From Escherichia coli (lineage in GTDB: Bacteria > Pseudomonadota > Gammaproteobacteria > Enterobacterales > Enterobacteriaceae), in the NCBI RefSeq assembly GCF_046105845.1, contig NZ_CP151004.1: a DNA stretch of 64,000 nt; one strand, written 5' to 3'. The stretch's first letter is position 1; each line of letters opens with the position of its first letter. A model generated the notes under the pieces. It saw nothing but the letters and a program-made list of their open reading frames with translations, was not told where the DNA came from and did not search any database. Below are positions 1 to 61,123 of the stretch, piece after piece. A program made the translations under genes and the position numbers.

Positions 1-3000
1 GTGGTGTATTCCACATTGTTAATCGTAACGGTAAGCGGCGTGCCTTCAGCCAGCCCCGAGCTACTGCCGCTGACCACCAGCGCCTGCCCGTGCTCGATGA
101 TATTGACCACATCATCGCCTGCCACCGTATCGACCCGCAGACCGGGCAGATTGGCGTCGATGGTGATATCCCGCGTGCCGCTGCCGGTGTTGCCGTTTTG
201 ATTGGTGACCGAGGCGCTCACCGTTAAATCGCCATTACCCAGCGCCTGAATAGCGTCCGCCGGAATGCTCACGCTCCAGCTTAATCCCGGCTGTACGGTG
301 GTGGTGTAGGTATTGCCACCCAGCGTAACGGTTACCGCGTCGCCAACGGCGGCTCCAGTCACCTGCCCGCTGATGGTTTGCGCGACGCCCGCTTCGGCGG
401 CGTTAATAATATCGTCGGTTGCCACCGGGTTAATGGTCACGCCGGGCAGCGCGCTGTCAACCAGCACGTTATGGCTGGCGGTGGCGCTGTTGCCGATATT
501 ACTCGTCACCGCCGCCGTTACCGTGTAGTTGGCCTGGCCCAGTGCGGTTACCGCCGATGCCGGAACGGTGACGCTCCAGTTGCCGGAGGCGTCGGTCGTG
601 GTGGTGTAATTTTGCCCGTTCAGCGTCACGGTGATGGCGGTATTGGCTGGCTGATCGCTGGTACCGGTAATCTGGACATCAGCCCCTTTTTCGCTGGCGT
701 TTATCACATCATCGCCAGCAATGGTGTTAATACCAATTACTGGCGCGGCGGTATTGACCGTGACAGTCAGTGACTGGCTGCCCGTGTTTCCGGCGCGGTC
801 AGTCACTGACACGTTGATCGGATAACTGCCATCCACCAGTCCGCTGACAACGGAAGCCGGAACGCCCAGGCTCCAGTTGCCGGAACCATCCACCACCGTG
901 GTGTAATCCACATTATTCAGCGTCACGGTGACGATATCGCCCGCCTGAGCGCCAGTAACCGTGCCGCTGATGATTTGCGCCTGGGTGTGTTCCGGCGTGT
1001 TGATGACGTTATCGGTCGCCACCGGATTAATGGTTACCACCGGCGGCGTGGCATCGACCAGCGCCACGCGTGAGACGCTGGTCGGGTTACCGGCGATATC
1101 GTTCACGCTGGCGGTGACGGTGGCGTTGCCGTCAGCCAGTGCGCCAACGTTGGCGGCGGGAACGGTCACGCTCCAGGTGCCGTCTGGCTGCACGACGCCC
1201 TGGTACGTCTGCCCGTTCAGCGTCACCGTTACCGTCTGCCCCGGCTGGGCGTCGGTGGTGCCGGTGATTTGCAGATCCTGACCACTTTCGGCGGCGTTAA
1301 TGATGTTATCAGCGGTCAGTGGATCGATACTTAAGGCCGGGGCCTGGCTGTCGACGGTAATGGTGCGAGAGGTGTTGCCGGTATTGCCGCTGAGATCCGT
1401 CACAGAAGCGGTAATCGCCACCGCGCCGTCAGGCAGATTTCCCATCGCGGCGGCAGGTACCGTCAGACTCCAGGAGCCATCAGCCTGCACGGTAGTAGTA
1501 AAACTCTGTCCAGCCAGGGTTACTGTGACGGTTTGTCCTGTCTCGGCCTGTTGAGTGCTACCGGTAAGGGTCAGTGGCGCACCTTTTTCTGCGCCACTGA
1601 TAATGTCATCGCCGGAGACGGTGTTAATGGTGATTAACGGAGAGACACCGACCAGCGTGATTGCTCGAGACGCCGCGCCGGTATTTCCTGCAGTATCTGT
1701 CACGGTGACGAAAATCGTATTGGCTCCGCGATCCAGCGTGCGGGTTACCGCTGGGTCCAGCGCCACATTCCAGCTGCCATCTGCCAGCACAATGCCCGTC
1801 AGGACATGAGTGCCCAATTTCACCGTTACCGTATCGCCAGGAGAAGCACCGCTGACTTGTCCGGAGATGATCTGCGCGACGGCCTGCTCAGCATTATTAA
1901 GAATATCGTCGCCCGCTACGGTATTAACACTGACCACGGGTGCTGAGGTATCTACCGTGAAATTCGCGCTGTGGCTGGTGCTGTTCCCAGCCCGATCGCT
2001 GACACTGGCATTGACAGCGTAATTACCCTCCGCCAGCGCCTGGACTTCCGTGGCTGGCAGCGTCACTTGCCAGGTTCCGTCGCTACCGACGGTTGCTGTA
2101 TGGCTTTTCCCGTTGACGGTCAGTGTTACGGTTTGCCCCGCTTCTGCATTCGACGTGCCGCTCAGTACCAGCGCGACGTTATGTTCCGCAGCACTGATGA
2201 TGTTGTCCTGAGCGATGGTGTTGATGGCAAGCGTTGGCGGTTGGGTATCGACCGTTAAAAGCTGCGCGCCGGTGACCGTATTGCCTGTGGCGTCTTTCCC
2301 GCTGACCAGCACTGCCTGATTCCCTTCGCCTAACGCCTGTGCATCGGCGGTCGGCACCTGCACGCTCCAGGCACCGTTAGCGCCTACGCTGGTGGTGTAG
2401 GTTTTGCCGTTTAGCGTAACGGTGAGTTCTGTTCCCTGCGCCAGATGGCTACTGGTACCAGAAAGCGTAAACCCGGCGGCCTGTTCGCTGGCGTTAATAA
2501 TGTTATCGCCTGCGGTGGTGGCAACCTGCACGCTGGCCTGACTATTGTCGATGGTTAACGTTATCGAACCGGCGTCAGTGATGGTACTGCCGACAATTTG
2601 CACCACTGACCAGGTATGTTCACCTGCACTTTGCGTGGGTAACGAGACACTCCAGTGACCGTTGTTGTCTACCTGAGTACTGGCAATAGTATTGCCGTTA
2701 CTGTCTTTAATCTGAATAGTCGCCCCCGCCTGCCCGCTGCCGCTAAAGGTTGGCGTGGTATCATCGGTGATGTCATTGGTGGCGAGAATGCCGCGCTGAT
2801 CGCCCTGATTATCGATAACTAAAAATGATGGTGTGGCAACACCCGGTTCAGGCACAGGCTCAGCGGGTGGCGTAGGGTTATTAATCACTTCCGTTTTCGA
2901 GTCGCCATCACCACCGCTTGCCAGCAGTGCACCAAGCGCACCACCACCTACCGCCGCCCCCGCCAGCCAACCCCACGGGAAGGCGCTGGTCTGAGCAACG

Positions 3001-3368
3001 GTATCAAGAAATGGCGCAATGCTTTCAATCGCAGTGGTCTGGGCAGTCAGTTCTACGGGGGCTAATCCACCCGCAGCAGTATCGGCGAAGGTGACATGGG
3101 TTAGCTGTTGCCCATCGGCAAACACCAGTTCCGATTGTTCAGCTGTATTCGCCGCTTGCAGGAAATAACCGTTGCAGCGGATCACCGTGCCGTCCTGCAT
3201 ATAGATCAGCAGGTCATTTCCTTCACGGACGTAACGCGCAACGGCAGAGGCCTGAGCATGAACCTGCACCACGGAAGGCTCATAAATAACAACCGTGACG
3301 TCGCCAGGATTAATCAGCGTTTGTTTGACGGATGTTTTACGCGAAATAACATCAATAATCAGGCTCAT
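1..3368 (-). CDS. Giant tandem-repeat Ig-like adhesin, probable type I secretion substrate; 5' portion only, gene continues past window start
   Basis: Manual minus-strand translation from ATG at 3368-3366 (AGGAA 8 nt upstream) reads MSLIIDVISRKTSVKQTLINPGDVTVVIYEPSVVQVHAQA... with no stops over the stretch checked (3061-3368); downstream shows ~100-aa Thr/Val/Gly-rich repeats. Absent from ORF track because no stop lies in the window. Confidence 0.7.
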   Translation of the reverse strand, partial: MSLIIDVISRKTSVKQTLINPGDVTVVIYEPSVVQVHAQASAVARYVREGNDLLIYMQDGTVIRCNGYFLQAANTAEQSELVFADGQQLTHVTFADTAAGGLAPVELTAQTTAIESIAPFLDTVAQTSAFPWGWLAGAAVGGGALGALLASGGDGDSKTEVINNPTPPAEPVPEPGVATPSFLVIDNQGDQRGILATNDITDDTTPTFSGSGQAGATIQIKDSNGNTIASTQVDNNGHWSVSLPTQSAGEHTWSVVQIVGSTITDAGSITLTIDNSQASVQVATTAGDNIINASEQAAGFTLSGTSSHLAQGTELTVTLNGKTYTTSVGANGAWSVQVPTADAQALGEGNQAVLVSGKDATGNTVTGAQLLTVDTQPPTLAINTIAQDNIISAAEHNVALVLSGTSNAEAGQTVTLTVNGKSHTATVGSDGTWQVTLPATEVQALAEGNYAVNASVSDRAGNSTSHSANFTVDTSAPVVSVNTVAGDDILNNAEQAVAQIISGQVSGASPGDTVTVKLGTHVLTGIVLADGSWNVALDPAVTRTLDRGANTIFVTVTDTAGNTGAASRAITLVGVSPLITINTVSGDDIISGAEKGAPLTLTGSTQQAETGQTVTVTLAGQSFTTTVQADGSWSLTVPAAAMGNLPDGAVAITASVTDLSGNTGNTSRTITVDSQAPALSIDPLTADNIINAAESGQDLQITGTTDAQPGQTVTVTLNGQTYQGVVQPDGTWSVTVPAANVGALADGNATVTASVNDIAGNPTSVSRVALVDATPPVVTINPVATDNVINTPEHTQAQIISGTVTGAQAGDIVTVTLNNVDYTTVVDGSGNWSLGVPASVVSGLVDGSYPINVSVTDRAGNTGSQSLTVTVNTAAPVIGINTIAGDDVINASEKGADVQITGTSDQPANTAITVTLNGQNYTTTTDASGNWSVTVPASAVTALGQANYTVTAAVTSNIGNSATASHNVLVDSALPGVTINPVATDDIINAAEAGVAQTISGQVTGAAVGDAVTVTLGGNTYTTTVQPGLSWSVSIPADAIQALGNGDLTVSASVTNQNGNTGSGTRDITIDANLPGLRVDTVAGDDVVNIIEHGQALVVSGSSSGLAEGTPLTVTINNVEYT

Positions 3369-3470
3369 AATGGCATTCCTGATAAATGGCGCACATCCTT
3401 AGCGAGTCCATTTATCTAAATAAGACAAAGGTAATCACTTAACAACGGCCCACTATTAATAATGGCAGGA

Positions 3471-4826
3471 TTATTTCAAGTCGGGTAAGTCGTTGTATAA
3501 GCCCTGTTTAATTCCCGCTAATGGAATAAGGTTATTCACCGCAGCGGCATAATTTACGGCGGCGACCCAGCCATCATAATTGGCATTTATTTCAGCCGAT
3601 TGCGCCTGAAAGACATCTTGCTCGACGGTTAATAGATCATTCAGACTGCGTTTGCCCAATTTATATTCATTTTGGTACACTTCTCGCGTTTTGTGCGCAC
3701 TTTCGGATTGTGCTAAACCGGCTTCTTCGCGACCTCGTGCGCCGGTCCAGTTCGCATATGCCACAGACGCTCGTTGCAGCACATCCAGTTTTGCCTGTTC
3801 GACCTGCGAGGCAGAGATTTTTTGTTGCCCTTCAGCTTGTTGCACCTGGGCTGAAACTGCGCCGCCCTGATACAGCGGCGCGTTAACGTTCAGTTGTAAC
3901 TGATCATCCCAATACGAGCGGTCGCTGGTCTGGTAGCGCGTTTTGCCCCCCTGAATACTCAGCGTTGGCCAGTATTGCGCTTTCGTTTTTTCCACGCCGT
4001 ACTGTGCTGACTGGCGTAAGTTTTCTGCCGCCAGCACCAGCGGGATGGACTGGTAATCAATATTTTTCAGCGACACCGGCTGCTCGGCTAATTCAGCAGG
4101 TGGCGCGGCTATCGCCTCCGGCTGTACGCCAGTGAGCACCGCCAGTTGCGCTTTGGCGCTTGCCATCTGCGCCTGATATTGCTCCAGCGTTGAGCGCATT
4201 CCGGCAATGCGCGTCTGGGCTTGTAATTCATCCGACGATGAGTTCAGGCCAGCGTTAGCGCGCAATGCCGCCATGTTGTAGACGTTTTCCAGCGAGTGAA
4301 TATTGCGTTGAGCCGCATCGCACAAAGCCTGATAACGACTGACTTCCATATAGGCAGTCGCCGTTTTCTCTGCAACATCGGTTAAGGTTGCCATCAATTT
4401 AAAGCGGTAGCTGTCACGGGCGGCAGTTTGCAGATTGATATCGTTGTTTGTTTTACCAAAGTCATACACCAGCTGTGTCAGGGTTATGCCATACGAAACG
4501 TTGTTATCAAGCCTGCCGCTGGAATCCGTTTGTCGGGACGGCCCCGCGTTGCCGGTTAATCCAACGTGCGGATACCAGGCACTTTTGGCTTCATCAATTT
4601 GCGCTTCGCCAATGCCTATCTGCGCCGCCTGTTGAGTGACGTCGGGATTTCGCGCAAAGGCGCGTAATATACTTTCCTGTAAAGATAATCGGGCAACTGG
4701 CGTTACCGCTGGGGCGTTCGCCCATTGTGGCAGCGGTGCAGCAATTGTAGCTTCTCCCATCACCATAAAACTTATTAAAAAAATAAACCCATTATTTTTA
4801 CGGCTTTTAAACTGGAATCGCGCCAT
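3471..4826 (-). CDS. TolC-family outer membrane efflux protein, probable type I secretion outer-membrane component
   Basis: 451-aa ORF with N-terminal signal-like hydrophobic segment and TolC-like composition; sits directly upstream of the adhesin gene on the same strand. Confidence 0.75.
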   Translation of the reverse strand: MARFQFKSRKNNGFIFLISFMVMGEATIAAPLPQWANAPAVTPVARLSLQESILRAFARNPDVTQQAAQIGIGEAQIDEAKSAWYPHVGLTGNAGPSRQTDSSGRLDNNVSYGITLTQLVYDFGKTNNDINLQTAARDSYRFKLMATLTDVAEKTATAYMEVSRYQALCDAAQRNIHSLENVYNMAALRANAGLNSSSDELQAQTRIAGMRSTLEQYQAQMASAKAQLAVLTGVQPEAIAAPPAELAEQPVSLKNIDYQSIPLVLAAENLRQSAQYGVEKTKAQYWPTLSIQGGKTRYQTSDRSYWDDQLQLNVNAPLYQGGAVSAQVQQAEGQQKISASQVEQAKLDVLQRASVAYANWTGARGREEAGLAQSESAHKTREVYQNEYKLGKRSLNDLLTVEQDVFQAQSAEINANYDGWVAAVNYAAAVNNLIPLAGIKQGLYNDLPDLK

Positions 4827-5129
4827 AGATAAGTCACTTCCTTCCAGGTCATTATTTTAACTGGTTTTTATAACCAGTCTCATTTTATTAAGAAGGGTAA
4901 TAACTTGTGCATCTCTTTTGTCGATCATTGATATGGGCAAAGAAATGCAGCTAAAAAGCTTATACGTTATTTATTTAGAATACACTACGACTTTTAGATT
5001 ACCATCATACACATTAAGAATAATCCACGGTAATAAGTGATTAGCATCACAGATTTATCGCGTATATATCATTTTTTTGTGACTTATTTATTAAAGGAAT
5101 AAGAAAGGAAATTTGAATTAAAGACAAAG

Positions 5130-5152
5130 GCGCAGTACAGGCTGTACTGCGC
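5130..5152 (-). terminator. Hairpin downstream of ybaT
   Basis: Inverted repeat gcgcagtacag/ctgtactgcgc just 3' of the ybaT stop; weak U-tract. Confidence 0.4.
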
Positions 5153-5163
5153 ACAGAGAGGTG

Positions 5164-6456
5164 TTATACGGTTTTATTGCGCTTCATGACCATTGCCACA
5201 ATAAGGCTGAGTAAGATTGCACCAATAATCCATATCAACGCACGGCTGCCCTGGGACCACAGGCTGTAGATAAAGCCAACGATCACCAACAACATCACCA
5301 ACGTACCTACGATAAGAATCGGCAACGAGGCGTGAATATCATGACGCAGGCGGATCGCCACCACAAACACCGCCAGATAGCAAATCAAAAAGGTGGCGCT
5401 GGCAACGCTGGCGAGTGAGCCTAAATTTAGTGCCGCCGTCATCAGCATAATCAACACCACGACAATGATGTTGCCCCAGGTACTCTGCCGCCACAGGGAT
5501 TTATTCATTAGCTTCGGCAGTTCGCGTTCGCTGCCCATGTTGTCCATGATGTTAAACACGGCGAACAGGTTCGCGTTGATGGCTGAAGCCGTCGCCAGTA
5601 AAGCGCCGATGACGACGATCACATAACCCACATGCCCGAGCAGCGGAGAAGCAGCCTGCGCTACGGCGGTATCGGCATATTTTTCTAACTCTAATGCCGA
5701 TACATCGCTAAGCAAAACCAGCGCCAGCGAGATATAAAGCAATGTGGTAACGCCAATCGCCACCAGAAACGCCCGTGGCATAATGATCTGCGGATCTTTC
5801 ACTTTATCCGCCGCGTTCGCCATCATGCCAAAGCCCGCATAGGCAAGGAAGGTTATCCCGATACAGGAGAAGAACGCACCGGAGCTGGGGGGCGCAGAGA
5901 CGGAAATATGCGCCGGTTGCAGCGACCAGACACCGGCAATAATCAGCAATAACAGGATCATCATTTTAATGCCGACGAGGATCACTTCCAGCCGCCCTAC
6001 CGCATGGTTGCTTAAGGAGTTGAAAAGCGTCATCACCGCAATGATCCCCAACGCGTAGAGCAATATAAGGTGCTCCTCCTGACTGCCTTCATGCAAAAAC
6101 TGCACGGCATAAGCGCCAAAAGCACGGGCGACCATGGCGATGCTCACCGCCAGCGTCAACAGGTACAATAACGAGAGTGCCAGCGAAAAGACGCCGTTGC
6201 CTAATCCGCGACGAAAGAAGTCGATAATACCGCCATTGCTGGGATAGCTCGCCCCCAGGCGCGCATAGGCATAACCGGAAAACATCGCCACAATACCGCC
6301 AAAAGCAAAGGCGACCCAGGTCGAGGCTTCCATTAGCAACGCAGCCTGCCCCAGCAGCGCGAAGATCCCCGCCCCCACCATTGCCCCAATACCGATGGAA
6401 ACGACGTTCCATAGACCGAGGGGTTTGTTATCGTTATTACCTTCCGTGTTCATCAT
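5164..6456 (-). CDS. ybaT: APC-family amino acid transporter YbaT
   Basis: 430-aa polytopic membrane protein; matches recalled YbaT and is directly downstream of glsA. Confidence 0.9.
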   Translation of the reverse strand: MMNTEGNNDNKPLGLWNVVSIGIGAMVGAGIFALLGQAALLMEASTWVAFAFGGIVAMFSGYAYARLGASYPSNGGIIDFFRRGLGNGVFSLALSLLYLLTLAVSIAMVARAFGAYAVQFLHEGSQEEHLILLYALGIIAVMTLFNSLSNHAVGRLEVILVGIKMMILLLLIIAGVWSLQPAHISVSAPPSSGAFFSCIGITFLAYAGFGMMANAADKVKDPQIIMPRAFLVAIGVTTLLYISLALVLLSDVSALELEKYADTAVAQAASPLLGHVGYVIVVIGALLATASAINANLFAVFNIMDNMGSERELPKLMNKSLWRQSTWGNIIVVVLIMLMTAALNLGSLASVASATFLICYLAVFVVAIRLRHDIHASLPILIVGTLVMLLVIVGFIYSLWSQGSRALIWIIGAILLSLIVAMVMKRNKTV

Positions 6457-6458
6457 GA

Positions 6459-7391
6459 TCAGCCCTTAAACACGTTATAGCCGAGTTGCTTAGCGACCGA
6501 TGCCACCATTTTTTGACCGCGAACACTGTTGCCTTCTTCGTCCAGCGGTGGTGAGAACGCGGCAATTCCCATCACGCCAGGGACGACCGCCAGAATACCG
6601 CCACCTACACCGCTTTTGCCCGGTAAACCAACGCGATACGCCCAGTCACCGGAGCGACCATACAGCCCTTCCATCATCATTTCAGCCAGAATGTACGGCA
6701 CGTTGTCGGCCTGAAGAACGCGTTTATGCGTCAGCGGATTCACACCACCCGCCGCCAGCGTCGCGCCAAGCGTTGCCAGTTCAACAGTATTGATGAGCGT
6801 GGAGCACTGACGGGTGTACACGTCACAGGCTTCCATTGCATCACAATAGAGATATCCGGCGGAGTACAGCAGCCAGGCAATGGCCCGGTTATGGAAGTTG
6901 GTTGTTTGTTCCGACTGGTTTACTTCGTCAGAGAGCGCTACCTGCTCACCAGCCAGTTGTTGTTGGATATGTAAAATTCGCTGCCAGCGTTGTTCGGCAT
7001 TTTCAGCGTTAATCAGGCTGGTGGTGGCAATAGCGCCAGCATTTACCAGTGGCGACAGCGGTTTGCCGCCATGCAACTCTAAGGCGATAACTGAGTTAAA
7101 GGGCAATCCGGTCGGGTCAGCGCCAACTTTGTCCTGTACCGCCTGCGGGCCGACATCTTCTAACGCAAGGGCTAACGTACAGACTTTCGAGATGGATTCC
7201 AGCGCAAAGCGGTAATCACTATCACCCGCGCGATATATGTTGCCATCGCAGGTCACAATAGCCACTGCTGCCAGTTGACCAGGTACATTCGCCAGAAAGG
7301 GAATGTAGTCGGCATTTTGTCCGCCGTTAAGTGAGTGAAATTGGGTGTAAGCCTGATCCACTGCCTGCTGTAATTTGTTTGCATCTAACAT
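6459..7391 (-). CDS. glsA: Glutaminase 1
   Basis: 310-aa ORF matching recalled GlsA/YbaS (MLDANKLQQAVDQAYTQFHSL...). Confidence 0.92.
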   Translation of the reverse strand: MLDANKLQQAVDQAYTQFHSLNGGQNADYIPFLANVPGQLAAVAIVTCDGNIYRAGDSDYRFALESISKVCTLALALEDVGPQAVQDKVGADPTGLPFNSVIALELHGGKPLSPLVNAGAIATTSLINAENAEQRWQRILHIQQQLAGEQVALSDEVNQSEQTTNFHNRAIAWLLYSAGYLYCDAMEACDVYTRQCSTLINTVELATLGATLAAGGVNPLTHKRVLQADNVPYILAEMMMEGLYGRSGDWAYRVGLPGKSGVGGGILAVVPGVMGIAAFSPPLDEEGNSVRGQKMVASVAKQLGYNVFKG

Positions 7392-7582
7392 CTTTTGTTA
7401 ACTCCTTTTTATAGATGCGGGAGGTAATTCCTCACCCCGGTGCCGATTTTCAGGCATCCTGATTTAACTTAGCACCCGCAACTTAACTACAGGAAAACAA
7501 AGAGATAAATGTCTAATCCTGATGCAAATCGAGCCGATTTTTTAATCTTTACGGACTTTTACCCGCCTGGTTTATTAATTTC

Positions 7583-7613
7583 TTGACCTTCCCCTTGCTG
7601 GAAGGTTTAACCT
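7583..7613 (+). promoter_or_regulatory. copA promoter with CueR (MerR-type) operator
   Basis: -35 TTGACC at 7583-7588; dyad CCTTCC-N7-GGAAGG at 7587-7605; long MerR-style spacer before the -10 region. Confidence 0.75.
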
Positions 7614-7653
7614 TTATCACAGCCAGTCAAAACTGTCTTAAAAGGAGTGTTTT

Positions 7654-10158
7654 ATGTCACAAACTATCGACCTGACCCTGGACGGCCTGTCCTGCGGTCA
7701 CTGCGTTAAACGCGTGAAAGAAAGTCTCGAACAGCGCCCGGATGTTGAGCAGGCGGATGTGTCTGTCACTGAAGCGCACGTTACCGGGACTGCCAGTGCA
7801 GAACAGCTGATCGAAACCATCAAACAAGCGGGTTATGACGCATCTGTAAGCCACCCAAAGGCTAAACCGCTGGCGGAGTCATCAATCCCGTCGGAAGCAC
7901 TGACAGCGGTTTCTGAGGCGCTTCCGGCAGCGACCGCCGATGACGATGACAGCCAGCAGTTGCTGCTGAGCGGCATGAGCTGCGCCAGCTGTGTCACCCG
8001 CGTACAAAATGCGCTGCAAAGCGTACCGGGCGTCACTCAGGCACGGGTAAACCTGGCGGAGCGTACTGCGCTGGTGATGGGCAGTGCCTCCCCACAAGAT
8101 TTAGTGCAGGCGGTGGAAAAAGCGGGCTACGGCGCGGAAGCGATTGAAGATGACGCTAAACGCCGCGAGCGCCAGCAAGAAACCGCCGTCGCTACGATGA
8201 AGCGCTTCCGCTGGCAGGCGATTGTCGCACTGGCGGTGGGTATCCCGGTGATGGTCTGGGGGATGATCGGCGATAACATGATGGTCACCGCCGACAACCG
8301 CAGCCTGTGGTTGGTTATCGGCCTGATAACCCTGGCGGTAATGGTTTTCGCCGGCGGGCATTTTTACCGCAGCGCATGGAAAAGCCTGCTGAACGGTGCA
8401 GCGACGATGGATACGCTGGTGGCGCTAGGTACTGGCGTGGCGTGGCTCTATTCGATGAGCGTCAACCTGTGGCCGCAGTGGTTCCCGATGGAAGCGCGAC
8501 ATCTTTATTACGAAGCCAGTGCGATGATTATCGGTTTGATTAATCTCGGCCATATGCTGGAAGCACGCGCACGTCAGCGTTCTTCTAAGGCGCTGGAGAA
8601 ATTACTCGATTTAACCCCACCGACGGCGCGCCTGGTTACTGACGAAGGTGAAAAAAGCGTGCCTCTGGCAGAAGTGCAGCCAGGTATGTTGCTGCGCCTG
8701 ACGACCGGCGATCGCGTGCCGGTAGATGGCGAGATTACCCAGGGCGAAGCATGGCTGGATGAAGCGATGCTGACGGGCGAACCAATCCCGCAGCAAAAAG
8801 GCGAAGGCGATAGCGTCCATGCCGGGACAGTGGTACAGGACGGCAGTGTGCTGTTTCGTGCCAGTGCGGTCGGCAGCCATACTACGCTGTCACGAATCAT
8901 TCGCATGGTGCGCCAGGCCCAGAGCAGCAAGCCTGAAATCGGCCAACTGGCGGATAAAATCTCCGCTGTGTTTGTGCCGGTGGTGGTAGTCATTGCGCTG
9001 GTCAGTGCGGCAATCTGGTATTTCTTTGGCCCGGCACCGCAAATTGTTTATACCCTGGTGATTGCCACCACGGTGCTGATTATCGCCTGTCCGTGTGCGC
9101 TGGGACTGGCGACGCCGATGTCGATTATTTCGGGCGTCGGGCGGGCGGCTGAGTTTGGTGTGCTGGTGCGGGACGCCGACGCGCTGCAACGCGCCAGTAC
9201 GCTCGACACCGTGGTGTTCGATAAAACCGGGACGCTGACCGAAGGGAAGCCGCAGGTTGTCGCAGTAAAAACATTTGCTGATATTGATGAAGCGCAAGCA
9301 TTGCGTCTGGCGGCGGCGCTGGAGCAAGGTTCCAGCCACCCGCTGGCACGGGCGATCCTCGATAAAGCAGGTGATATGCAGCTACCGCAGGTCAACGGTT
9401 TCCGCACATTGCGCGGGCTGGGTGTGAGCGGTGAAGCTGAAGGTCATGCGGTATTGCTGGGCAATCAGGCGCTGTTAAATGACCAGCAAGTTGATACTAA
9501 AGCGATTGAGGCAGATATTTCAGCTCAGGCATCGCAAGGGGCAACGCCTGTGCTGCTGGCGGTTGACGGGAAAGCGGTGGCCTTGCTGGCAGTACGCGAT
9601 CCGTTGCGTAACGATAGCGTGGCGGCGCTGCAACGTCTGCATAAAGCGGGATATCGTCTGGTGATGTTGACCGGGGATAACCCAACCACCGCCAATGCGA
9701 TCGCCAAAGAAGCAGGGATTGATGAGGTGATCGCCGGGGTGCTGCCGGACGGTAAAGCCGAAGCGATCAAACGTCTGCAAAGTGAAGGACGTCAGGTGGC
9801 AATGGTGGGCGACGGCATTAACGACGCGCCAGCGCTGGCCCAGGCGGATGTCGGTATTGCGATGGGTGGCGGCAGTGATGTTGCCATTGAAACCGCGGCG
9901 ATTACCCTGATGCGCCATAGCCTGATGGGTGTTGCAGATGCGCTCGCGATTTCCCGCGCAACGCTGCGCAATATGAAGCAGAACCTGCTCGGTGCGTTTA
10001 TCTACAACAGCATTGGTATTCCGGTCGCCGCCGGTATTTTGTGGCCGTTCACTGGAACACTGCTTAACCCGGTGGTTGCCGGAGCGGCAATGGCGCTATC
10101 GTCGATTACCGTAGTGAGTAACGCCAACCGGTTACTGCGGTTTAAACCGAAAGAGTGA
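7654..10158 (+). CDS. copA: Cu(I)-translocating P-type ATPase
   Basis: 834-aa ORF with two N-terminal GMSCxxC metal-binding domains, CPC and DKTGT motifs. Confidence 0.96.
7854..7860 (+). other. copA: Programmed -1 ribosomal frameshift site in copA (slippery heptamer C CCA AAG) giving the CopA(Z) chaperone
   Basis: CCCAAAG lies in the 0 frame at codons 67-69; the -1 frame reads CCC AAA GGC TAA, terminating after ~70 aa. Confidence 0.7.
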
Positions 10159-10234
10159 TTGGTATTTACTTAATGCGTTTGTGAGATCCAGTTCTTGTTG
10201 CGCTCCTTTTATGAGTAATGCCATATAAAGTGAC

Positions 10235-10560
10235 TGGCGCAGGGAGCGCGCAGGGGGCGGCCAATCGCCGCCGCCCCCTGCCCCCCCGGGCTCTGGCGAA
10301 CAAAATCGCCGCTGCGCGGTACCCTCAGCTTATCCCTTGCGGCTACCGGGTCGGGCGCGAGGTAACATCCCTGTAAAACGCGCCCTCAGCCCACATCCAT
10401 GTGGGCTGCCCCGGCCTTCAGGGAACGCCTCGGCGATTTTGACGCCACCAACACCGGTGCAGTCTTTCGTTTCAAAGCAAAAACAATTTTTCGATCATAT
10501 TTAAGCTACCACTGAACAAGCCTCATAACTCCATTTGCGCCATCCCTCCCTGCGCGCTAG
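10235..10560. repeat. GC-rich intergenic element with nested inverted repeats, unknown function
   Basis: 10-bp inverted repeat gcgcagggag (10237-10246) / ctccctgcgc (10546-10555); inner inverted repeat aaaatcgccg (10302-10311) / cggcgatttt (10431-10440); perfect 11-bp GC stem 10251-10261 / 10270-10280; hairpin 10388-10407. No ORF of 60 aa or more. Confidence 0.4.
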
Positions 10561-10586
10561 CATGATATTTCACAAAGGGAGGTCGT

Positions 10587-11381
10587 ATGGATCTGTTGTA
10601 CCGGGTAAAAACGCTTTGGGCCGCGCTGCGCGGTAATCATTACACCTGGCCTGCTATCGATATCTCTCTTCCCGGCAATCGCCATTTTCATCTGCTCGGC
10701 AGTATTCATATGGGTAGCCACGATATGGCTCCCCTGCCCACCCGTTTGCTCAAAAAGCTCAAAAACGCCGATGCGCTGATCGTCGAGGCGGATGTTTCCA
10801 CCAGCGATACGCCTTTTGCTAATTTGCCTGCCTGCGAGGCGCTGGAAGAGCGCATTAGCGAGGAGCAACTCCAAAACCTGCAGCACATTAGCCAGGAGAT
10901 GGGCATTTCTACCTCACTCTTTTCTACCCAACCGCTGTGGCAAATCGCGATGGTTCTTCAGGCGACACAGGCGCAAAAACTGGGGCTGCGGGCAGAGTAT
11001 GGTATCGATTACCAGCTATTGCAGGCGGCGAAGCAACAACATAAATCCGTGATTGAACTGGAAGGGGCAGAAAACCAGATTGCCATGTTGCTCCAGCTCC
11101 CTGACAACGGACTGGCGCTGCTGGACGATACGCTGACCCACTGGCACACCAATGCACGGTTGCTGCAACAAATGATGAGCTGGTGGCTGAACACGCCGCC
11201 GCAAAATAATGAAATAACGCTGCCTAATACGTTCAGTCAGTCGCTGTACGATGTGTTGATGCATCAGCGAAATCTCGCCTGGCGGGATAAATTACGCGCC
11301 ATGCCGCCGGGGCGATATGTGGTCGCGGTCGGTGCACTACACCTGTATGGAGAAGGGAATTTACCGCAAATGTTGCGCTAA
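10587..11381 (+). CDS. ybaP: TraB-family protein YbaP
   Basis: 264-aa ORF matching recalled YbaP. Confidence 0.9.
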   Translation: MDLLYRVKTLWAALRGNHYTWPAIDISLPGNRHFHLLGSIHMGSHDMAPLPTRLLKKLKNADALIVEADVSTSDTPFANLPACEALEERISEEQLQNLQHISQEMGISTSLFSTQPLWQIAMVLQATQAQKLGLRAEYGIDYQLLQAAKQQHKSVIELEGAENQIAMLLQLPDNGLALLDDTLTHWHTNARLLQQMMSWWLNTPPQNNEITLPNTFSQSLYDVLMHQRNLAWRDKLRAMPPGRYVVAVGALHLYGEGNLPQMLR

Positions 11382-11463
11382 AAAAATGGCCAATATCGCT
11401 ATTGGCCCGTCAAAGAGGAATTTCATTTTTTTATTATTATGCCGTCACTTTAAGCGACGGTGT
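11381..11463 (-). ncRNA. chiX: ChiX (MicM/SroB) Hfq-dependent sRNA
   Basis: Minus strand reads ACACCGTCGCTTAAAGTGACGGCATAATAATAAAAAAATGAAATTCCTCTTTGACGGGCCAATAGCGATATTGGCCATTTTTTT, matching recalled ChiX including terminator hairpin and U-tract; in the ybaK-ybaP intergenic region as in K-12. Confidence 0.85.
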
Positions 11464-11569
11464 AACTCGATTGTCGCTCAATCTCACCATCCTGCCAATA
11501 CTCTTAGGCAAGATGACTCTTTTTTTTGGACCGCCATCAGGCGTATGCTTGCTTCGTTTTTTTGTTTAA

Positions 11570-12064
<495 letters not shown>

Positions 12065-12069
12065 GCATT

Positions 12070-12098
12070 GTGCCGGATGCGAACATCCGGCACTTTCG
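12070..12098. terminator. Hairpin between convergent ybaK and ushA
   Basis: Perfect palindrome gtgccggatg-cgaa-catccggcac. Confidence 0.5.
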
Positions 12099-12100
12099 GA

Positions 12101-13753
12101 TTACTGCCAGTTCACCTCACCTTTCGGTTCATAGACACTCACATCCAGCGGCGAGCTCTTCTGGATATACGCTTTCAGCACTTCGGCATCAATAAAGCCG
12201 GTATTCACATAGCCCGGTTTGTTATCAAGGCGCGGATAGCCATCACCGCCGGTGGCATTGAAGTTTAATGTCGCCATACGGTAAGTTTTCGCTGGATCGA
12301 CCGGTTCGCCTTTGATTTTAAGGTCGTTCAGTTTGCCGTCTTTCGCCACAAAGCTAACGTTGGCAAATTGCGGGTAGGCACCTGAATCTGGCTTCATTTG
12401 TGCGACGGCGGTCAGGTAATCAATCACCTCTTTACCGGTCATGTCGGCATACACCACCACATTGCCGAATGGCTGCACTTTCAGCACGTTTTTATAGCTG
12501 ATATCGCCTGCTTCGATAGAATCACGAATTCCGCCTCCACTCATCACCGCAAAGTCAGCACCAGTGCGATCCATTTGTGCTGCCAGAATTAACCGCCCCA
12601 TATTGGTCTGTACAAAACGCACTTTGTCACGATCGCCTTCCAGACGACCATTGGTTTCGCCTATTTTCACTTCCAGCTGCGCTTTGCCTTTGTTCTGGAA
12701 CGGCGATAACAGCGAGATCATTTGCTGGTTTTCAGCGATTTCAGGGGTGTACAGCACGCGCTCGCTTTTCCCGTCTTCCCAGGTCACTTTCTTCTTCAGG
12801 TTCACCGGAATCAGCTGGTAGTTAACCATTTTCATTTCGCCATTACGAAACTCAAAATCAGCCCGTCCCACGTATTTGCCCCACTCATGCGCCTGCACAA
12901 TCCAGATGCCGTTTTGTTGATCCGGTTTACATGGCGTACCCGGCACGTAATCGACCTGTTTTTTGTTTTCTGCCGCCATGCAGACCGGATCTTGCGAGTG
13001 ACCACCGACGATCATCGCCAGCGATCCGGCAGGCAGCGCGCGTGCCATCTCCACATCGCCCGGTGCGTTAGAGCCGTGCTCACCATTGTCGTAATGCCCC
13101 ATATGGGTCGCCGCGATAATAATGTCTGGCTTTTCTGTCTGTTGTAGCTCCTGAATCACCAGCTTCGCTTCATCGGCGGGCTTACGGAACTCAATATCGG
13201 TGAAGTTTTCTGGGTTGCCTAACTTCGCTGTGTCATCCGTCGTCAGGCCAATAACGGCAATTTTCAGATCCTGACGCTTAAACAGCGCCCACGGTTTAAA
13301 CAGGCGCTCGCCGGTACTTTTCTGGTAGATATTGGCAGAAAGCAACGGGAACTTTGCCCACTTTTCCTGCTGGCGTAATACGGTGAGCGGGTTATCAAAT
13401 TCATGATTACCGATTGCCATCGCGTCATAGCCCACCAGATTCATGCCGCGAAAATCAGGTTCGGCATCCTGTAAGTCGGACTCGGGCACGCCAGTATTAA
13501 TGTCGCCACCGGAAAGTAGCAGCACGCTACCGCCTTCAGCCGCAACCTCTTTGCGGATACCATCCACCAGCGTTTTTTGCGCCGCCAGACCATATTCGCC
13601 ATATTCATTGCGCCAAAAATGCCCATGATGATCATTGGTGTGCAGAACTGTAATTTTGTAGGTTTTATCCTGCTCATACGCCAGAGCAGTTTCACTCGCC
13701 AGTGTAAATGTGGTTAACAGTGCTAATGCCACGCCCCGCTGCAATAATTTCAT
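12101..13753 (-). CDS. ushA: UDP-sugar hydrolase / 5'-nucleotidase
   Basis: 550-aa ORF with signal peptide and metallophosphatase motifs (HTNDHHG). Confidence 0.95.
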   Translation of the reverse strand: MKLLQRGVALALLTTFTLASETALAYEQDKTYKITVLHTNDHHGHFWRNEYGEYGLAAQKTLVDGIRKEVAAEGGSVLLLSGGDINTGVPESDLQDAEPDFRGMNLVGYDAMAIGNHEFDNPLTVLRQQEKWAKFPLLSANIYQKSTGERLFKPWALFKRQDLKIAVIGLTTDDTAKLGNPENFTDIEFRKPADEAKLVIQELQQTEKPDIIIAATHMGHYDNGEHGSNAPGDVEMARALPAGSLAMIVGGHSQDPVCMAAENKKQVDYVPGTPCKPDQQNGIWIVQAHEWGKYVGRADFEFRNGEMKMVNYQLIPVNLKKKVTWEDGKSERVLYTPEIAENQQMISLLSPFQNKGKAQLEVKIGETNGRLEGDRDKVRFVQTNMGRLILAAQMDRTGADFAVMSGGGIRDSIEAGDISYKNVLKVQPFGNVVVYADMTGKEVIDYLTAVAQMKPDSGAYPQFANVSFVAKDGKLNDLKIKGEPVDPAKTYRMATLNFNATGGDGYPRLDNKPGYVNTGFIDAEVLKAYIQKSSPLDVSVYEPKGEVNWQ

Positions 13754-13970
13754 ACTTCTCTCCCTGACCTGATTTCAACGTGTTGAAAAATAGTATGACG
13801 CGACATCATAGACAAGTCTGCGTCCGGTGAAGATAAATCTGTATCCAGATTAGAAATTCTGTATTCAGCGTTGAGACTTCCTTCAGGGGGCGCATACAGG
13901 TATGTTAGTCGGGTAATAATCACAAATAAGATCATTCTTTACATCGCAACCCTGAAAAAGTGACTTTCCT

Positions 13971-15191
13971 ATGGCAATGAGTGAACAAACCCAGCCTGTG
14001 GCGGGCGCGGCTGCGTCAACGACCAAGGCCCGAACATCGTTTGGTATTTTAGGTGCTATCAGCCTCTCACATCTGCTGAACGACATGATCCAATCGCTGA
14101 TTCTGGCGATTTATCCTCTGCTTCAGTCAGAATTTTCTCTGACATTTATGCAGATTGGCATGATAACCCTCACCTTCCAGCTCGCCTCTTCGCTACTGCA
14201 ACCAGTGGTCGGCTACTGGACCGATAAATATCCGATGCCGTGGTCGTTGCCAATTGGCATGTGCTTTACCTTAAGTGGTCTGGTGCTGCTTGCGCTGGCG
14301 GGCAGTTTTGGCGCAGTTCTGCTGGCGGCGGCGCTGGTCGGTACCGGTTCATCGGTCTTTCATCCGGAATCTTCTCGCGTGGCCCGTATGGCTTCTGGCG
14401 GGCGTCATGGCCTGGCGCAATCTATCTTTCAGGTCGGCGGCAACTTTGGCAGTTCCCTGGGGCCCTTGCTGGCAGCGGTAATTATCGCGCCTTATGGCAA
14501 AGGCAACGTAGCCTGGTTTGTGCTTGCGGCACTGCTGGCGATCGTGGTGTTGGCGCAAATCAGCCGTTGGTACTCGGCACAGCATCGAATGAATAAAGGA
14601 AAACCAAAAGCGACGATTATCAATCCACTGCCGCGCAACAAAGTGGTACTGGCGGTCAGCATTCTGTTAATCCTCATTTTCTCGAAATATTTCTATATGG
14701 CGAGCATCAGCAGCTATTACACCTTTTATCTGATGCAAAAATTCGGATTATCTATCCAGAATGCCCAGCTTCATCTGTTTGCCTTCCTGTTTGCCGTTGC
14801 GGCAGGTACGGTGATCGGCGGGCCTGTAGGGGATAAAATTGGGCGAAAATATGTGATTTGGGGCTCTATCCTCGGCGTTGCGCCGTTTACGCTGATTTTA
14901 CCCTACGCCAGCCTGCACTGGACGGGGGTTTTAACGGTGATTATTGGATTTATCCTCGCTTCGGCATTCTCTGCCATTCTGGTCTACGCTCAGGAGCTGC
15001 TTCCGGGACGTATCGGTATGGTTTCTGGACTCTTTTTCGGTTTTGCTTTTGGCATGGGAGGTCTGGGAGCGGCAGTTCTGGGGCTTATCGCCGATCACAC
15101 CAGCATCGAGTTAGTCTATAAAATCTGTGCTTTCCTGCCACTATTGGGGATGTTGACCATATTCCTGCCTGATAACCGGCATAAAGAGTGA
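13971..15191 (+). CDS. fsr: Fosmidomycin resistance MFS transporter
   Basis: 406-aa MFS-type membrane protein in the conserved position. Confidence 0.9.
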   Translation: MAMSEQTQPVAGAAASTTKARTSFGILGAISLSHLLNDMIQSLILAIYPLLQSEFSLTFMQIGMITLTFQLASSLLQPVVGYWTDKYPMPWSLPIGMCFTLSGLVLLALAGSFGAVLLAAALVGTGSSVFHPESSRVARMASGGRHGLAQSIFQVGGNFGSSLGPLLAAVIIAPYGKGNVAWFVLAALLAIVVLAQISRWYSAQHRMNKGKPKATIINPLPRNKVVLAVSILLILIFSKYFYMASISSYYTFYLMQKFGLSIQNAQLHLFAFLFAVAAGTVIGGPVGDKIGRKYVIWGSILGVAPFTLILPYASLHWTGVLTVIIGFILASAFSAILVYAQELLPGRIGMVSGLFFGFAFGMGGLGAAVLGLIADHTSIELVYKICAFLPLLGMLTIFLPDNRHKE

Positions 15192-15198
15192 TTTCATT

Positions 15199-15223
15199 GC
15201 AGCCAAAGGCAAACTTTGGCTGC
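15199..15223 (+). terminator. Hairpin after fsr
   Basis: Inverted repeat gcagccaaagg/cctttggctgc. Confidence 0.45.
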
Positions 15224-15429
15224 ATCATTTTACAGTCGCCATAAGCCTTTCCTCTGTTAAACCGCCTTCAGTTTTCCGATCCGTGCTTTTTTTTGCAGCT
15301 AATTCCATTTTTCTGCAAAATTCAACAATTATTCATAAACATCATCAATGAAATTGTCATAAACTATTACCTGTAATTTTGGTTTTCCCGGCCAAAAATG
15401 GACAATAACCACCAGGAAAAGGAGACGGA

Positions 15430-17106
15430 ATGCATCACGCCACCCCGCTTATCACCACCATTGTTGGCGGCCTTGTGCTCGCCTTTATCCTCGGCATGCT
15501 GGCCAATAAACTACGTATTTCTCCTCTGGTGGGATATCTGTTAGCGGGTGTGCTGGCAGGACCATTCACTCCGGGCTTTGTTGCCGATACCAAGCTTGCG
15601 CCGGAACTGGCTGAACTGGGCGTCATTCTGTTGATGTTTGGCGTGGGTCTGCACTTTTCGCTGAAGGATTTGATGGCGGTAAAGGCCATCGCCATTCCCG
15701 GCGCGATCGCCCAGATAGCCGTGGCGACGCTGCTGGGTATGGCGCTCTCCGCCGTGCTGGGCTGGTCGTTAATGACCGGTATCGTGTTCGGCTTATGCCT
15801 TTCCACCGCCAGTACCGTGGTGTTACTGCGCGCACTTGAAGAACGGCAATTAATAGACAGTCAGCGTGGGCAAATCGCCATCGGTTGGTTGATTGTGGAA
15901 GACCTGGTAATGGTTCTGACGCTGGTGTTGCTGCCCGCAGTGGCAGGAATGATGGAACAAGGCGATGTGGGCTTTGCCACTCTTGCTGTCGATATGGGGA
16001 TCACCATCGGCAAGGTGATCGCATTTATCGCCATTATGATGCTGGTAGGTCGCCGTCTGGTGCCGTGGATTATGGCACGCAGCGCAGCAACCGGTTCCCG
16101 TGAGCTGTTTACCCTGTCGGTGCTGGCGCTGGCGTTAGGGATTGCCTTTGGTGCGGTGGAGCTGTTTGATGTCTCCTTTGCACTCGGTGCGTTCTTTGCC
16201 GGGATGGTACTGAACGAGTCTGAACTGAGTCACCGTGCCGCCCACGATACGCTGCCATTGCGCGATGCGTTTGCGGTGCTGTTTTTTGTCTCCGTCGGGA
16301 TGTTGTTTGATCCGTTAATTCTGATTCAGCAACCGCTGGCAGTGCTGGCGACGCTGGCAATTATTCTGTTTGGTAAATCGGTCGCGGCACTGTTCCTTGT
16401 GCGTCTGTTTGGTCACTCCCAGCGCACGGCGTTAACCATCGCCGCCAGCCTTGCGCAGATTGGTGAGTTCGCATTTATCCTGGCGGGACTGGGAATGGCA
16501 TTGAATTTACTGCCGCAGGCCGGACAAAACCTGGTACTGGCAGGGGCGATTTTGTCGATTATGCTCAACCCGGTCCTGTTTGCGCTGCTGGAGAAATATC
16601 TGGCGAAGACCGAAACGCTGGAAGAGCAGACGCTGGAAGAGGCTATCGAAGAAGAGAAGCAGATCCCAGTGGATATTTGCAACCATGCGCTACTGGTAGG
16701 TTACGGTCGTGTAGGCAGCCTGCTGGGGGAGAAATTGCTCGCCTCTGATATTCCGCTGGTGGTGATTGAGACGTCACGAACCCGTGTTGATGAACTGCGA
16801 GAGCGCGGGGTCCGCGCAGTATTGGGCAATGCGGCGAACGAAGAAATTATGCAACTGGCGCATCTGGAATGTGCAAAATGGCTGATCCTGACGATTCCCA
16901 ACGGTTATGAAGCGGGCGAGATTGTGGCGTCTGCCCGCGCGAAAAATCCGGATATTGAGATTATCGCCCGCGCCCATTATGACGATGAAGTGGCGTATAT
17001 CACCGAACGTGGCGCGAATCAGGTAGTGATGGGTGAGCGTGAAATTGCTCGTACTATGCTGGAACTGCTGGAAACACCACCGGCGGGTGAAGTGGTGACG
17101 GGGTAA
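15430..17106 (+). CDS. ybaL: CPA2-family cation/proton antiporter with C-terminal TrkA-N domain
   Basis: 558-aa ORF: membrane domain plus Rossmann-type GYGRVG motif. Confidence 0.92.
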   Translation: MHHATPLITTIVGGLVLAFILGMLANKLRISPLVGYLLAGVLAGPFTPGFVADTKLAPELAELGVILLMFGVGLHFSLKDLMAVKAIAIPGAIAQIAVATLLGMALSAVLGWSLMTGIVFGLCLSTASTVVLLRALEERQLIDSQRGQIAIGWLIVEDLVMVLTLVLLPAVAGMMEQGDVGFATLAVDMGITIGKVIAFIAIMMLVGRRLVPWIMARSAATGSRELFTLSVLALALGIAFGAVELFDVSFALGAFFAGMVLNESELSHRAAHDTLPLRDAFAVLFFVSVGMLFDPLILIQQPLAVLATLAIILFGKSVAALFLVRLFGHSQRTALTIAASLAQIGEFAFILAGLGMALNLLPQAGQNLVLAGAILSIMLNPVLFALLEKYLAKTETLEEQTLEEAIEEEKQIPVDICNHALLVGYGRVGSLLGEKLLASDIPLVVIETSRTRVDELRERGVRAVLGNAANEEIMQLAHLECAKWLILTIPNGYEAGEIVASARAKNPDIEIIARAHYDDEVAYITERGANQVVMGEREIARTMLELLETPPAGEVVTG

Positions 17107-17111
17107 ACGGT

Positions 17112-17914
<803 letters not shown>

Positions 17915-18018
17915 ATCAGCATACTTGTCCTTAGCCTTCTGCAGTGACAGCTGGTAGTACAGCGTGCTTCTGGCCAGCCCTGCAGCCTTTAACAGGTCAG
18001 ACTGGCAGTGTCCGCACC

Positions 18019-18549
18019 TCAGGCTCCGGATGACTTTCGTTTTTTCTCCAGCTCCTGGCGCTTTTTTTCCAGGAGATGCTCCTGCATGGCTTTCAGATAT
18101 GCATTTTCTGCGCGAAGATAACGCAGCTCATTCTTCATCTCTTCCGGCGTCATGTTTGCCTCGTTTTCATGGGTATCATCAGAACGGGTCATGCTTTTCT
18201 CCTTCCTGCGCCTGATAAAGGCCTCATTACCAGATTTGCGGTAGCCTTTTATCCAGTTTTTAACCGTGTTGTGGCTGGGAATGTTAAACCGGGCAGCTAC
18301 CCGGGGTAGAGACTCAGAATGCCCGAGAGCATAAAGAACCACGCAAAGTTTATCTTCAGGAGAATAGCTACGCTTGTGTCTGCAATCCAGTGCCCGAGGA
18401 CCGTGAAGAAGAAAAAGATTAATCCAGTGTGAGAGGCTGGTGTGAGAAAGTTGAAAGAGTTTTGCCGTAGAAATGATGCCTGCATGACCAGCCAGGTAAT
18501 GATTTACAGCGGCAAGTTTTACTTCAAATGAATGTTTCATAAACTGCAC
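18019..18549 (-). CDS. IS3-family transposase OrfA (HTH plus leucine zipper)
   Basis: 176-aa ORF; C-terminal heptad leucines (LRYLRAENAYLKAMQEHLLEKKRQELEKK). Confidence 0.85.
   Translation of the reverse strand: MQFMKHSFEVKLAAVNHYLAGHAGIISTAKLFQLSHTSLSHWINLFLLHGPRALDCRHKRSYSPEDKLCVVLYALGHSESLPRVAARFNIPSHNTVKNWIKGYRKSGNEAFIRRRKEKSMTRSDDTHENEANMTPEEMKNELRYLRAENAYLKAMQEHLLEKKRQELEKKRKSSGA
18061..18067 (-). other. A AAA AAG programmed -1 frameshift motif at the end of IS orfA
   Basis: Minus strand reads CTG GAA AAA AAG CGC in the orfA frame, the classical IS3-family slippery heptamer. Confidence 0.6.
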
Positions 18550-29722: not shown

Positions 29723-29887
29723 ATGTCACTGGAAAATGCCCCTGACGATGTCAAACTGGCTGTCGATTTGATTGTGCTGCTGGAAGAAAATCAGATCCCA
29801 GCCCGCACCGTGCTGCGCGCGCTGGATATTGTGAAGCGTGATTATGAAAAGAAGTTACAGAGCGATGAGGCTTCGCAAAGCGAGTAA
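29723..29887 (+). CDS. ybaM: Small protein YbaM (DUF2496)
   Basis: 54-codon [57 protein letters not shown] read by hand; below the ORF-track cutoff; GGAGA 7 nt upstream. Confidence 0.8.
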
Positions 29888-29925
29888 AAAATAAAGGGCG
29901 GCATCACTGTCGCCCTTTATTGTCC

Positions 29926-43262: not shown

Positions 43263-43376
43263 GGGTGGGGGCCCTGCCAGCTACATCCCGGCACACGCGT
43301 CATCTGCCTTGGCTGCTTCCTTCCGGACCTGACCTGGTAAACAGAGTAGCGTTGCGGGAGAACCAACAGAGCCCCC
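43263..43376 (-). ncRNA. ffs: 4.5S RNA (signal recognition particle RNA)
   Basis: Minus strand reads GGGGGCTCTGTTGGTTCTCCCGCAACGCTACTCTGTTTACCAGGTCAGGTCCGGAAGGAAGCAGCCAAGGCAGATGACGCGTGTGCCGGGATGTAGCTGGCAGGGCCCCCACCC, matching recalled 114-nt ffs. Confidence 0.95.
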
Positions 43377-60936: not shown

Positions 60937-61018
60937 AGAGCTCTCTCTTAGTTTAATTTCCGCCAGGTAATCAGATGACACGACTGTGCTTCACGCCATC
61001 TATTAACATGTACGTCAG

Positions 61019-61046
61019 TATATGGGGATGTTTCCCCCACATTCAA
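61019..61046 (-). promoter_or_regulatory. Heat-shock (sigma32-type) promoter of lon
   Basis: Minus strand reads TTGAAT (-35), 13-nt spacer, CCCCATATA (-10). Confidence 0.55.
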
Positions 61047-61123
61047 CGCCGAGAATAGAGGAAAAATTAAAGGGGAGATAAAATCCCCCCTTTTTGGTTA
61101 ACTAATTGTATGGGAATGGTTAA

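Follow-up and report, generated by a model that had tools for sequence, protein, structure and literature searches.

A TolC-family gene beside the giant adhesin gene siiEA very probably encodes the dedicated outer-membrane channel of a type I secretion locus in Escherichia coli

A stretch of 64,000 nucleotides of Escherichia coli DNA (RefSeq assembly GCF_046105845.1, contig NZ_CP151004.1; 'the window' hereafter means this whole stretch) carries a gene for a TolC-family protein of 451 amino acids beside the 5' part of siiEA, which encodes a giant adhesin. The role of the 451-amino-acid protein is very probably that of the dedicated outer-membrane channel of a four-gene type I secretion locus that exports SiiEA; the evidence presented here is that of family, fold, gene order, co-occurrence and conservation of a regulatory box. 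The locus is O-island 28 of enterohaemorrhagic E. coli (EHEC) O157:H7, the SiiEA locus, and the finding is already known, both as public annotation, which includes a SiiEA-specific model, and as experiment. What is confirmed is a textbook gene arrangement at a locus already named by NCBI annotation. The features at the centre of the analysis are:

3471..4826, minus strand: TolC-family gene of 451 codons, with its ATG at 4826 and its stop codon ending at 3471
3369..3470, minus strand: gap of 102 bp separating the TolC-family gene from siiEA; an AGGA stands 7-10 nt ahead of the ATG of siiEA
1..3368, minus strand: 5' part of siiEA, codons 1-1122, an open frame in a gene that runs past the window start

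The protein contains two Pfam OEP (PF02321) domains, at residues 49-233 (E 7e-27) and 264-430 (E 2e-20), and these tandem repeats span the mature protein. It matched TIGR01844 (NCBIfam type_I_sec_TolC) with 415.6 bits against a cut-off of 225.15 (E 2e-124) and over the full length of the profile (positions 3-412 of 414). An AlphaFold2 model of a single protomer, built on 19 homologues, has a mean predicted local distance difference test score (pLDDT) of 83, with beta strands at residues 86-93, 109-120, 287-298 and 303-314 and long helices at 124-190, 196-231, 320-388 and 394-428. Its top Foldseek matches in the PDB were TolC of E. coli, Salmonella and Klebsiella (E 1e-20 to 3e-22; template modelling (TM) scores of ~0.65-0.71), and the protein is accordingly predicted to adopt the TolC protomer fold of four beta strands and long helical hairpins. 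The original prediction, made from the letters alone, had described a TolC-like protein of this length encoded on the same strand about 100 bp upstream of the adhesin; the profile search that it proposed for the OEP/TolC family gave matches to OEP and, above its cut-off, to TIGR01844, and both the description and the spacing were borne out.

This is a paralogue and not the housekeeping tolC, given that it scored 66.3 bits against a cut-off of 495 with the housekeeping TolC equivalog model (NF007002) and is only ~20% identical to E. coli TolC (1EK9). Matching genes in E. coli genomes are labelled 'TolC family outer membrane protein' by the Prokaryotic Genome Annotation Pipeline (PGAP). The N-terminus, MARFQFKSRKNNGFIFLISFMVMGEATIAA, has by eye a basic stretch followed by a hydrophobic stretch and no Cys, and the model places a helix at residues 9-23; as there is no lipobox cysteine, the N-terminus reads as a Sec signal peptide and not as that of a lipoprotein. 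The missing lipobox also bears on whether the protein might instead be a general efflux channel, serving drug pumps of the resistance-nodulation-division (RND), major facilitator superfamily (MFS) or ATP-binding cassette (ABC) type, with its adjacency to the adhesin incidental. It does belong to the same superfamily as OprM, CusC and other efflux outer-membrane factors, but its score with the NodT/efflux models lay far below their cut-off (94.6 versus 210 bits), and the gene context and published phenotypes described below make an efflux role very improbable.

The adhesin gene starts with an ATG at 3368, on the same strand as the TolC-family gene, and its frame is open for 1122 of 1122 codons to position 3. 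This N-terminal part scored 501.4 bits against a cut-off of 425 with the adhesin_SiiEA model (NF047714), and contains a BapA_N domain and ten Ca_tandemer (Ca2+-stabilised tandem) repeats; PGAP names the matching genes 'siiEA: BapA-related adhesin SiiEA'. An intact siiEA of 6925 amino acids is present in strain 1190, where the adhesin reaches ~17.4 kb past the equivalent of window position 1; strain FDAARGOS_1289 also has an uninterrupted siiEA. The window covers only the N-terminal 1122 residues and the C-terminal signal was therefore read in the SiiEA of strain 1190, the last 103 residues of which matched the type I secretion C-terminal target domain TIGR03661 (36.1 bits versus a cut-off of 17.6), a domain of the VCA0849 type.

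Gene order was read in eight island-positive genomes and occurrence was counted in a collection of 5426 complete E. coli genomes. In all eight the order was ybaT, tolC, siiEA (~6925 amino acids), an ABC permease/ATPase, an HlyD-family adaptor and cueR, so that the ABC and membrane-fusion genes, which had been predicted to lie beyond the window start, are found past the 3' end of the adhesin gene. The genes downstream of the adhesin are tightly packed: in strain 1190 a 720-amino-acid ABC permease/ATPase begins 3 bp after siiEA and is overlapped by 4 bp by the gene for a 391-amino-acid HlyD-family adaptor. The ABC protein passed the cut-off of the LssB family (TIGR03375; 835 bits versus 693) and failed that of HlyB (TIGR01846; 389 versus 725), and the adaptor passed that of TIGR01843 (328 versus 209). 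Judged by these profile scores, the exporter is of the LssB/LapB type and not of the HlyB type implied by the name hlyB28 that its O157:H7 counterpart was given in 2025 (PMC12758282).

The TolC-family gene was present in 958 of the 5426 genomes, always in single copy and always on the chromosome, and the ABC and HlyD pair in 959; the four-gene locus (tolC, siiEA, ABC, hlyD) between ybaT and cueR thus occurs in ~18% of complete E. coli genomes. The adjoining ybaT, glsA and copA, identified at 5164-10158, place the window's copy on the E. coli chromosome as well. A megablast search with window positions 1-7500 found 957 complete E. coli genomes at a coverage of at least 80%, with 98.5% for the best whole-span match among them. 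Positions 1-17141 are colinear with strain 1190 at 98.4%, and strain PCN033 is 100% identical over 3369-5163 and 99.2% identical over the wider region, with a different adhesin repeat content.

Homologues of the TolC-family protein with 56-80% identity were found throughout the Enterobacterales, and some of the close ones carry the JGI name 'adhesin transport system outer membrane protein'. Immediately downstream of the gene for the Salmonella enterica homologue (69% identity), and on the same strand, lies that for a BapA_N adhesin of 5819 amino acids; the Pluralibacter gergoviae homologue is placed in the same way before a giant adhesin of 11106 amino acids. The chromosomal neighbourhoods in these two species are unrelated to that in E. 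coli, which argues that TolC and giant adhesin form a conserved unit. Both this synteny across genera and the near-equal occurrence of the TolC-family gene and the ABC and HlyD genes tell against the efflux channel considered above, as does the finding that deletion of the O157:H7 orthologue, tolC28, has the same effect as deletion of each of the other four island genes (PMC12758282). The same gene order, co-occurrence and tolC28 phenotypes support a dedicated type I secretion-adhesin locus, as the original prediction had proposed.

The downstream end of the locus adjoins other genes. The HlyD-family gene and cueR share 4 bp, the stop of the one falling on the start of the other (L002:17997-18000; the same junction is seen in L003, L004 and L010-L014). 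cueR encodes a copper-responsive regulator. The end of the adaptor gene supplies an AGGAGG before cueR; in island-positive strains, read-through of the secretion operon may therefore extend into cueR. Between cueR and ybbJ the island is adjoined by a gene for a YadA-like trimeric autotransporter and three small genes of 140, 67 and 120 amino acids (L002:14737-17589). A K-12-like strain is without these four genes, and cueR abuts ybbJ there; in O157, IS1203 has inserted into the YadA-like gene. The small cueR-flanking genes and the YadA-like protein were considered as accessory factors and set aside, there being no informative NCBIfam match.

The window protein is identical at 444 of 451 residues (98%) to that of O157:H7, TolC28. 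Niu et al. (Gut Microbes 2025; PMC12758282) named the island genes tolC28, rtxA28, rtxB28, hlyB28 and hlyD28, the adhesin region of EDL933 being treated as two genes, rtxA28 and rtxB28. Each single island-gene deletion lowered adherence to Caco-2 cells and colonisation of mice; the adherence defect of the tolC28 mutant matched those of the other four single mutants, including those in the adhesin genes, and tolC28, hlyB28 and hlyD28 were complemented (PMC12758282). RstA was shown by chromatin immunoprecipitation (ChIP) and electrophoretic mobility shift assay (EMSA) to bind the TAATTCAAATTACC box of tolC28, and it activates the island in a Ca2+-dependent manner (PMC12758282). The genetic need for adherence and the binding of RstA are thus known from the literature for a 98%-identical orthologue (PMC12758282). 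The name siiEA, which Boisen et al. (2012; PMC3256949) used, originated in the annotation of the UMN026 genome.

The region upstream of the TolC-family gene contains the following features:

4827..5163, minus strand: leader/regulatory region between ybaT and the TolC-family gene, 337 bp, AT-rich
5107..5120, minus strand: RstA box TAATTCAAATTTCC, with 13 of the 14 bases of the published TAATTCAAATTACC
5130..5152, minus strand: intrinsic terminator of ybaT, with a 10-bp stem, 6 G-C pairs and a T-rich tail

Four aligned alleles of the leader (window, strain 1190, PCN033 and O157:H7) have a mean column identity of 99%. The RstA box was matched once in the window, where 0.02 matches would be expected by chance, and lies at -281 to -294 relative to the ATG of the TolC-family gene; the published box spans -294 to -280 of tolC28 (PMC12758282). 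Its single A-to-T change is common to the window and PCN033. Promoter-like hexamers were seen at 4911-4882 and 4883-4854, and the O157 counterpart of the leader has a BPROM-predicted promoter and RstA-dependent lacZ activity (PMC12758282). The ybaT terminator at 5130-5152 sets the upstream limit of the tolC transcription unit. No terminator-like site was found in the 102-bp gap at 3369-3470, of which other strains have a 108-bp variant.

Two further candidates for control were dropped. Translational coupling through an RNA fold of the gap, in which the adhesin Shine-Dalgarno sequence pairs with bases after the TolC stop codon, was considered for the window allele (-27.8 kcal/mol; z -1.9 to -2.2); z was only -0.1 to -1.4 for the 108-bp alleles and for the gaps of Salmonella and Pluralibacter, and the fold is therefore not robust across alleles. 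The RfaH ops element occurs in other long type I secretion operons. A search for its sequence, GGCGGTAGNNTG, found no match in either the leader or the gap and it was rejected as a regulator there; the sole nearby match, with one mismatch, lies inside the adhesin coding region.

Taken as a dedicated secretion locus, the system would work as follows. Transcription would start in the 337-bp leader, past the ybaT terminator, with RstA, as in O157, activating through the box at 5107-5120. The transcript would probably continue across the 102-bp gap, which has no terminator, to the adhesin gene. The TolC paralogue would be exported by the Sec pathway through its N-terminal signal peptide, would form, by homology, a trimeric barrel and tunnel of the TolC type, and would dock onto the HlyD-family adaptor and the LssB-family ABC exporter. 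This three-part exporter would pass SiiEA, a protein of several thousand residues with Ca2+-stabilised immunoglobulin (Ig) repeats, C-terminus first to the cell surface, where it would promote adherence.

Several observations weigh against this account. The window does not reach the ABC and adaptor genes or ~84% of the adhesin, co-transcription across the gap between the TolC-family and adhesin genes is probable rather than certain, and the window's RstA box has one mismatch. In the eight related genomes PGAP annotates the adhesin as a pseudogene in five, the TolC-family gene as frameshifted in one (strain 222) and the HlyD-family gene as frameshifted in one (PCN033). The adhesin is thus often annotated as broken, and this includes the O157 genome inspected, which is of the serotype used in the 2025 experiments: the adhesin region of O157:H7 TX 265-1 (L004:10793-30953) consists of three large open reading frames (ORFs) of 1461, 3979 and 1170 amino acids, and the published phenotypes are consequently harder to interpret.

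Locus decay is a real possibility, and the window could hold a remnant, with an intact TolC ORF but with the adhesin or one of its partners disrupted past the window, so that nothing useful is exported. Annotation shows four intact genes in only two of the eight genomes inspected; PCN033, although 100% identical over the TolC-family gene and leader, has both a frameshifted adhesin and a frameshifted HlyD; and the whole locus has been lost by deletion from ~4460 genomes. We nevertheless find a remnant possible but doubtful, in that the TolC-family gene and the first 1122 adhesin codons are open in the window, pseudogene flags on repeat genes of 20 kb may in some cases reflect assembly errors, and phenotypes are still seen in O157 strains whose adhesin is fragmented (PMC12758282). 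A working dedicated channel for SiiEA remains our preferred reading of the TolC-family gene.

Loss of the locus has left a trace. The ~4460 of 5426 genomes that are island-free, K-12-like laboratory strains included, keep 96-99 bp of the 3' end of the HlyD-family gene (~91% identical) directly upstream of cueR, which PGAP marks as a pseudogene fragment. In HE_50, one K-12-like genome (L005:1501-1628), this remnant is joined inside the ybaT terminator hairpin, as seen by comparison with L002:17997-18095 and window positions 5130-5163. The adaptor remnant and the junction within the terminator indicate that the island-free state is a deletion derivative, from which the 25.6-kb locus was lost. 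The locus was on this evidence lost by deletion rather than simply gained by pathogens, which qualifies the view of the island as an acquisition taken in the 2025 paper (PMC12758282).

How the cell surface retains BapA_N-type adhesins, and whether the dedicated TolC paralogue plays any part in this, is a question of some interest. Three features of the adhesin N-terminus are relevant:

3009..3368, minus strand: BapA_N prefix domain, adhesin residues 1-120, a compact beta domain predicted with confidence
2910..2981, minus strand: hydrophobic Gly/Ala stretch FPWGWLAGAAVGGGALGALLASGG, adhesin residues 130-153, conserved in the family
3069..3080, minus strand: TAAG, adhesin residues 97-100, which fits the LapG consensus [T/A/P]AA[G/V], probably by coincidence

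Within the Gly/Ala stretch, 108 of 116 family representatives have G142, with W132 and G141 frequent too; residues 130-153 have a pLDDT below 50 in the monomer model. BapA_N-type giant proteins share near their N-termini the conserved pattern PWGW..GAAxGGGAxGxLLA, with a Gly/Ser/Asp-rich run after it.

By analogy, this TolC may reasonably be supposed to anchor the adhesin; if it does so, the use of LapG is unlikely. In a two-step system of the LapA/LapE type the adhesin would be threaded in TolC by an N-terminal retention module and a LapG-like periplasmic protease would cut at TAAG. Several features would suit such a system: TAAG fits the published consensus at about the same N-terminal distance as in LapA, the ABC protein is of the LssB/LapB and not the HlyB type, the C-terminal target domain belongs to the VCA0849 type, and a confidently folded N-terminal beta domain is followed by a conserved Gly-rich stretch. 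The motif itself is not conserved, however, and a LapG cleavage site at 97-100 was set aside as improbable for this reason: Ala-Ala is kept in six close sequences, but Salmonella has VAAT and Pluralibacter TAAL, and the full LapG motif is present in only 10 of the 116 family representatives. The model places TAAG inside the folded domain, in a loop that joins strands, and not in a linker. The adhesin N-terminus matches BapA_N, and an NCBIfam scan found no retention-module family of the LapA type in it even at E up to 10, nor did the fold of the N-terminal domain match any solved retention module. No gene neighbouring the locus matched an NCBIfam protease or cyclic di-GMP (c-di-GMP) receptor family, which leaves no LapG-like or LapD-like candidate nearby. 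Neither LapG nor LapD is known to be encoded by E. coli. Taken together, these findings make retention of the LapA type improbable here.

We tentatively suggest, as a possibility that is at present some way from likely, that BapA_N-type adhesins including SiiEA may be held by their dedicated TolC in a manner distinct from LapA/LapG, with the domain at residues 1-120, which resembles a repeats-in-toxin (RTX) roll, as a periplasmic plug and residues 130-153 in the channel or outer membrane, and with no need for LapG or LapD. If true, TolC would be a structural anchor as well as a conduit, and this would explain why a separate TolC gene is kept beside each such adhesin.

Elsewhere in the window, an IS3-family insertion sequence lies between ybaL and gsk at 17192-18549 on the minus strand, with orfA (176 amino acids) at 18019-18549 and orfB (240 amino acids) at 17192-17914; we presume that it resembles IS150. 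Strain 1190 has IS621 at the same ybaL-gsk intergenic site. Four Rfam matches above gathering score, as expected for this core E. coli region, were the sraA small RNA (61008-61103, plus strand), the DnaX frameshift element (26574-26638, minus strand), the sroB small RNA (11380-11463, minus strand) and the small signal recognition particle RNA (43272-43368, minus strand). Beside rsmS, on the mscK side, there is a short indel, the window having 39 bp (29869-29907) and strain 1190 ~209 bp (L009:2465-2673).

The closest known system is O-island 28 of O157, which lies at the same site after ybaT and, like the related genomes of the window type, has the adhesin, ABC and HlyD genes in the same order. 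It differs from the window by the one substitution in the RstA box, and by the adhesin, which is split in three ORFs in O157:H7 TX 265-1, whereas the 1122 codons in the window are colinear with the intact 6925-residue gene of strain 1190. A further difference is one of naming: by NCBIfam the ABC protein called hlyB28 is a member of the LssB family.

The LapEBC-LapA system of Pseudomonas fluorescens likewise has a dedicated TolC-like pore (LapE), an ABC protein of the LssB/LapB type and an adaptor of the HlyD type, and its cargo too is a giant repeat adhesin with a C-terminal signal. SiiEA differs from LapA in having BapA_N at its N-terminus in place of the LapA retention module; the NCBIfam scan of neighbouring genes found no LapD or LapG near the window-type locus, and here, unlike in the Lap system, the adhesin gene comes immediately after the TolC-family gene, with both on one strand. 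LapA is known to be anchored in its pore (bioRxiv 10.1101/198937), while for SiiEA such anchoring is suggested by that analogy.

The BapA-BapBCD and Salmonella pathogenicity island 4 (SPI-4) SiiCDEF systems of Salmonella also combine giant Ig-repeat adhesins with TolC-like, ABC and adaptor genes of their own, and the BapA_N prefix domain is common to SiiEA and Salmonella BapA. In Salmonella bapA precedes bapBCD, and the SPI-4 order is siiABCDEF with an extra SiiAB proton channel; no siiAB-like genes were found at the E. coli locus as read in strain 1190. The HlyBD-TolC haemolysin exporter of E. coli resembles the present system as a three-part assembly of ABC exporter, adaptor and channel with the TolC fold. 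The Hly system borrows the housekeeping TolC, whereas the SiiEA locus encodes a separate paralogue, ~20% identical to it, together with an ABC protein that falls below the HlyB cut-off (389 versus 725 bits).

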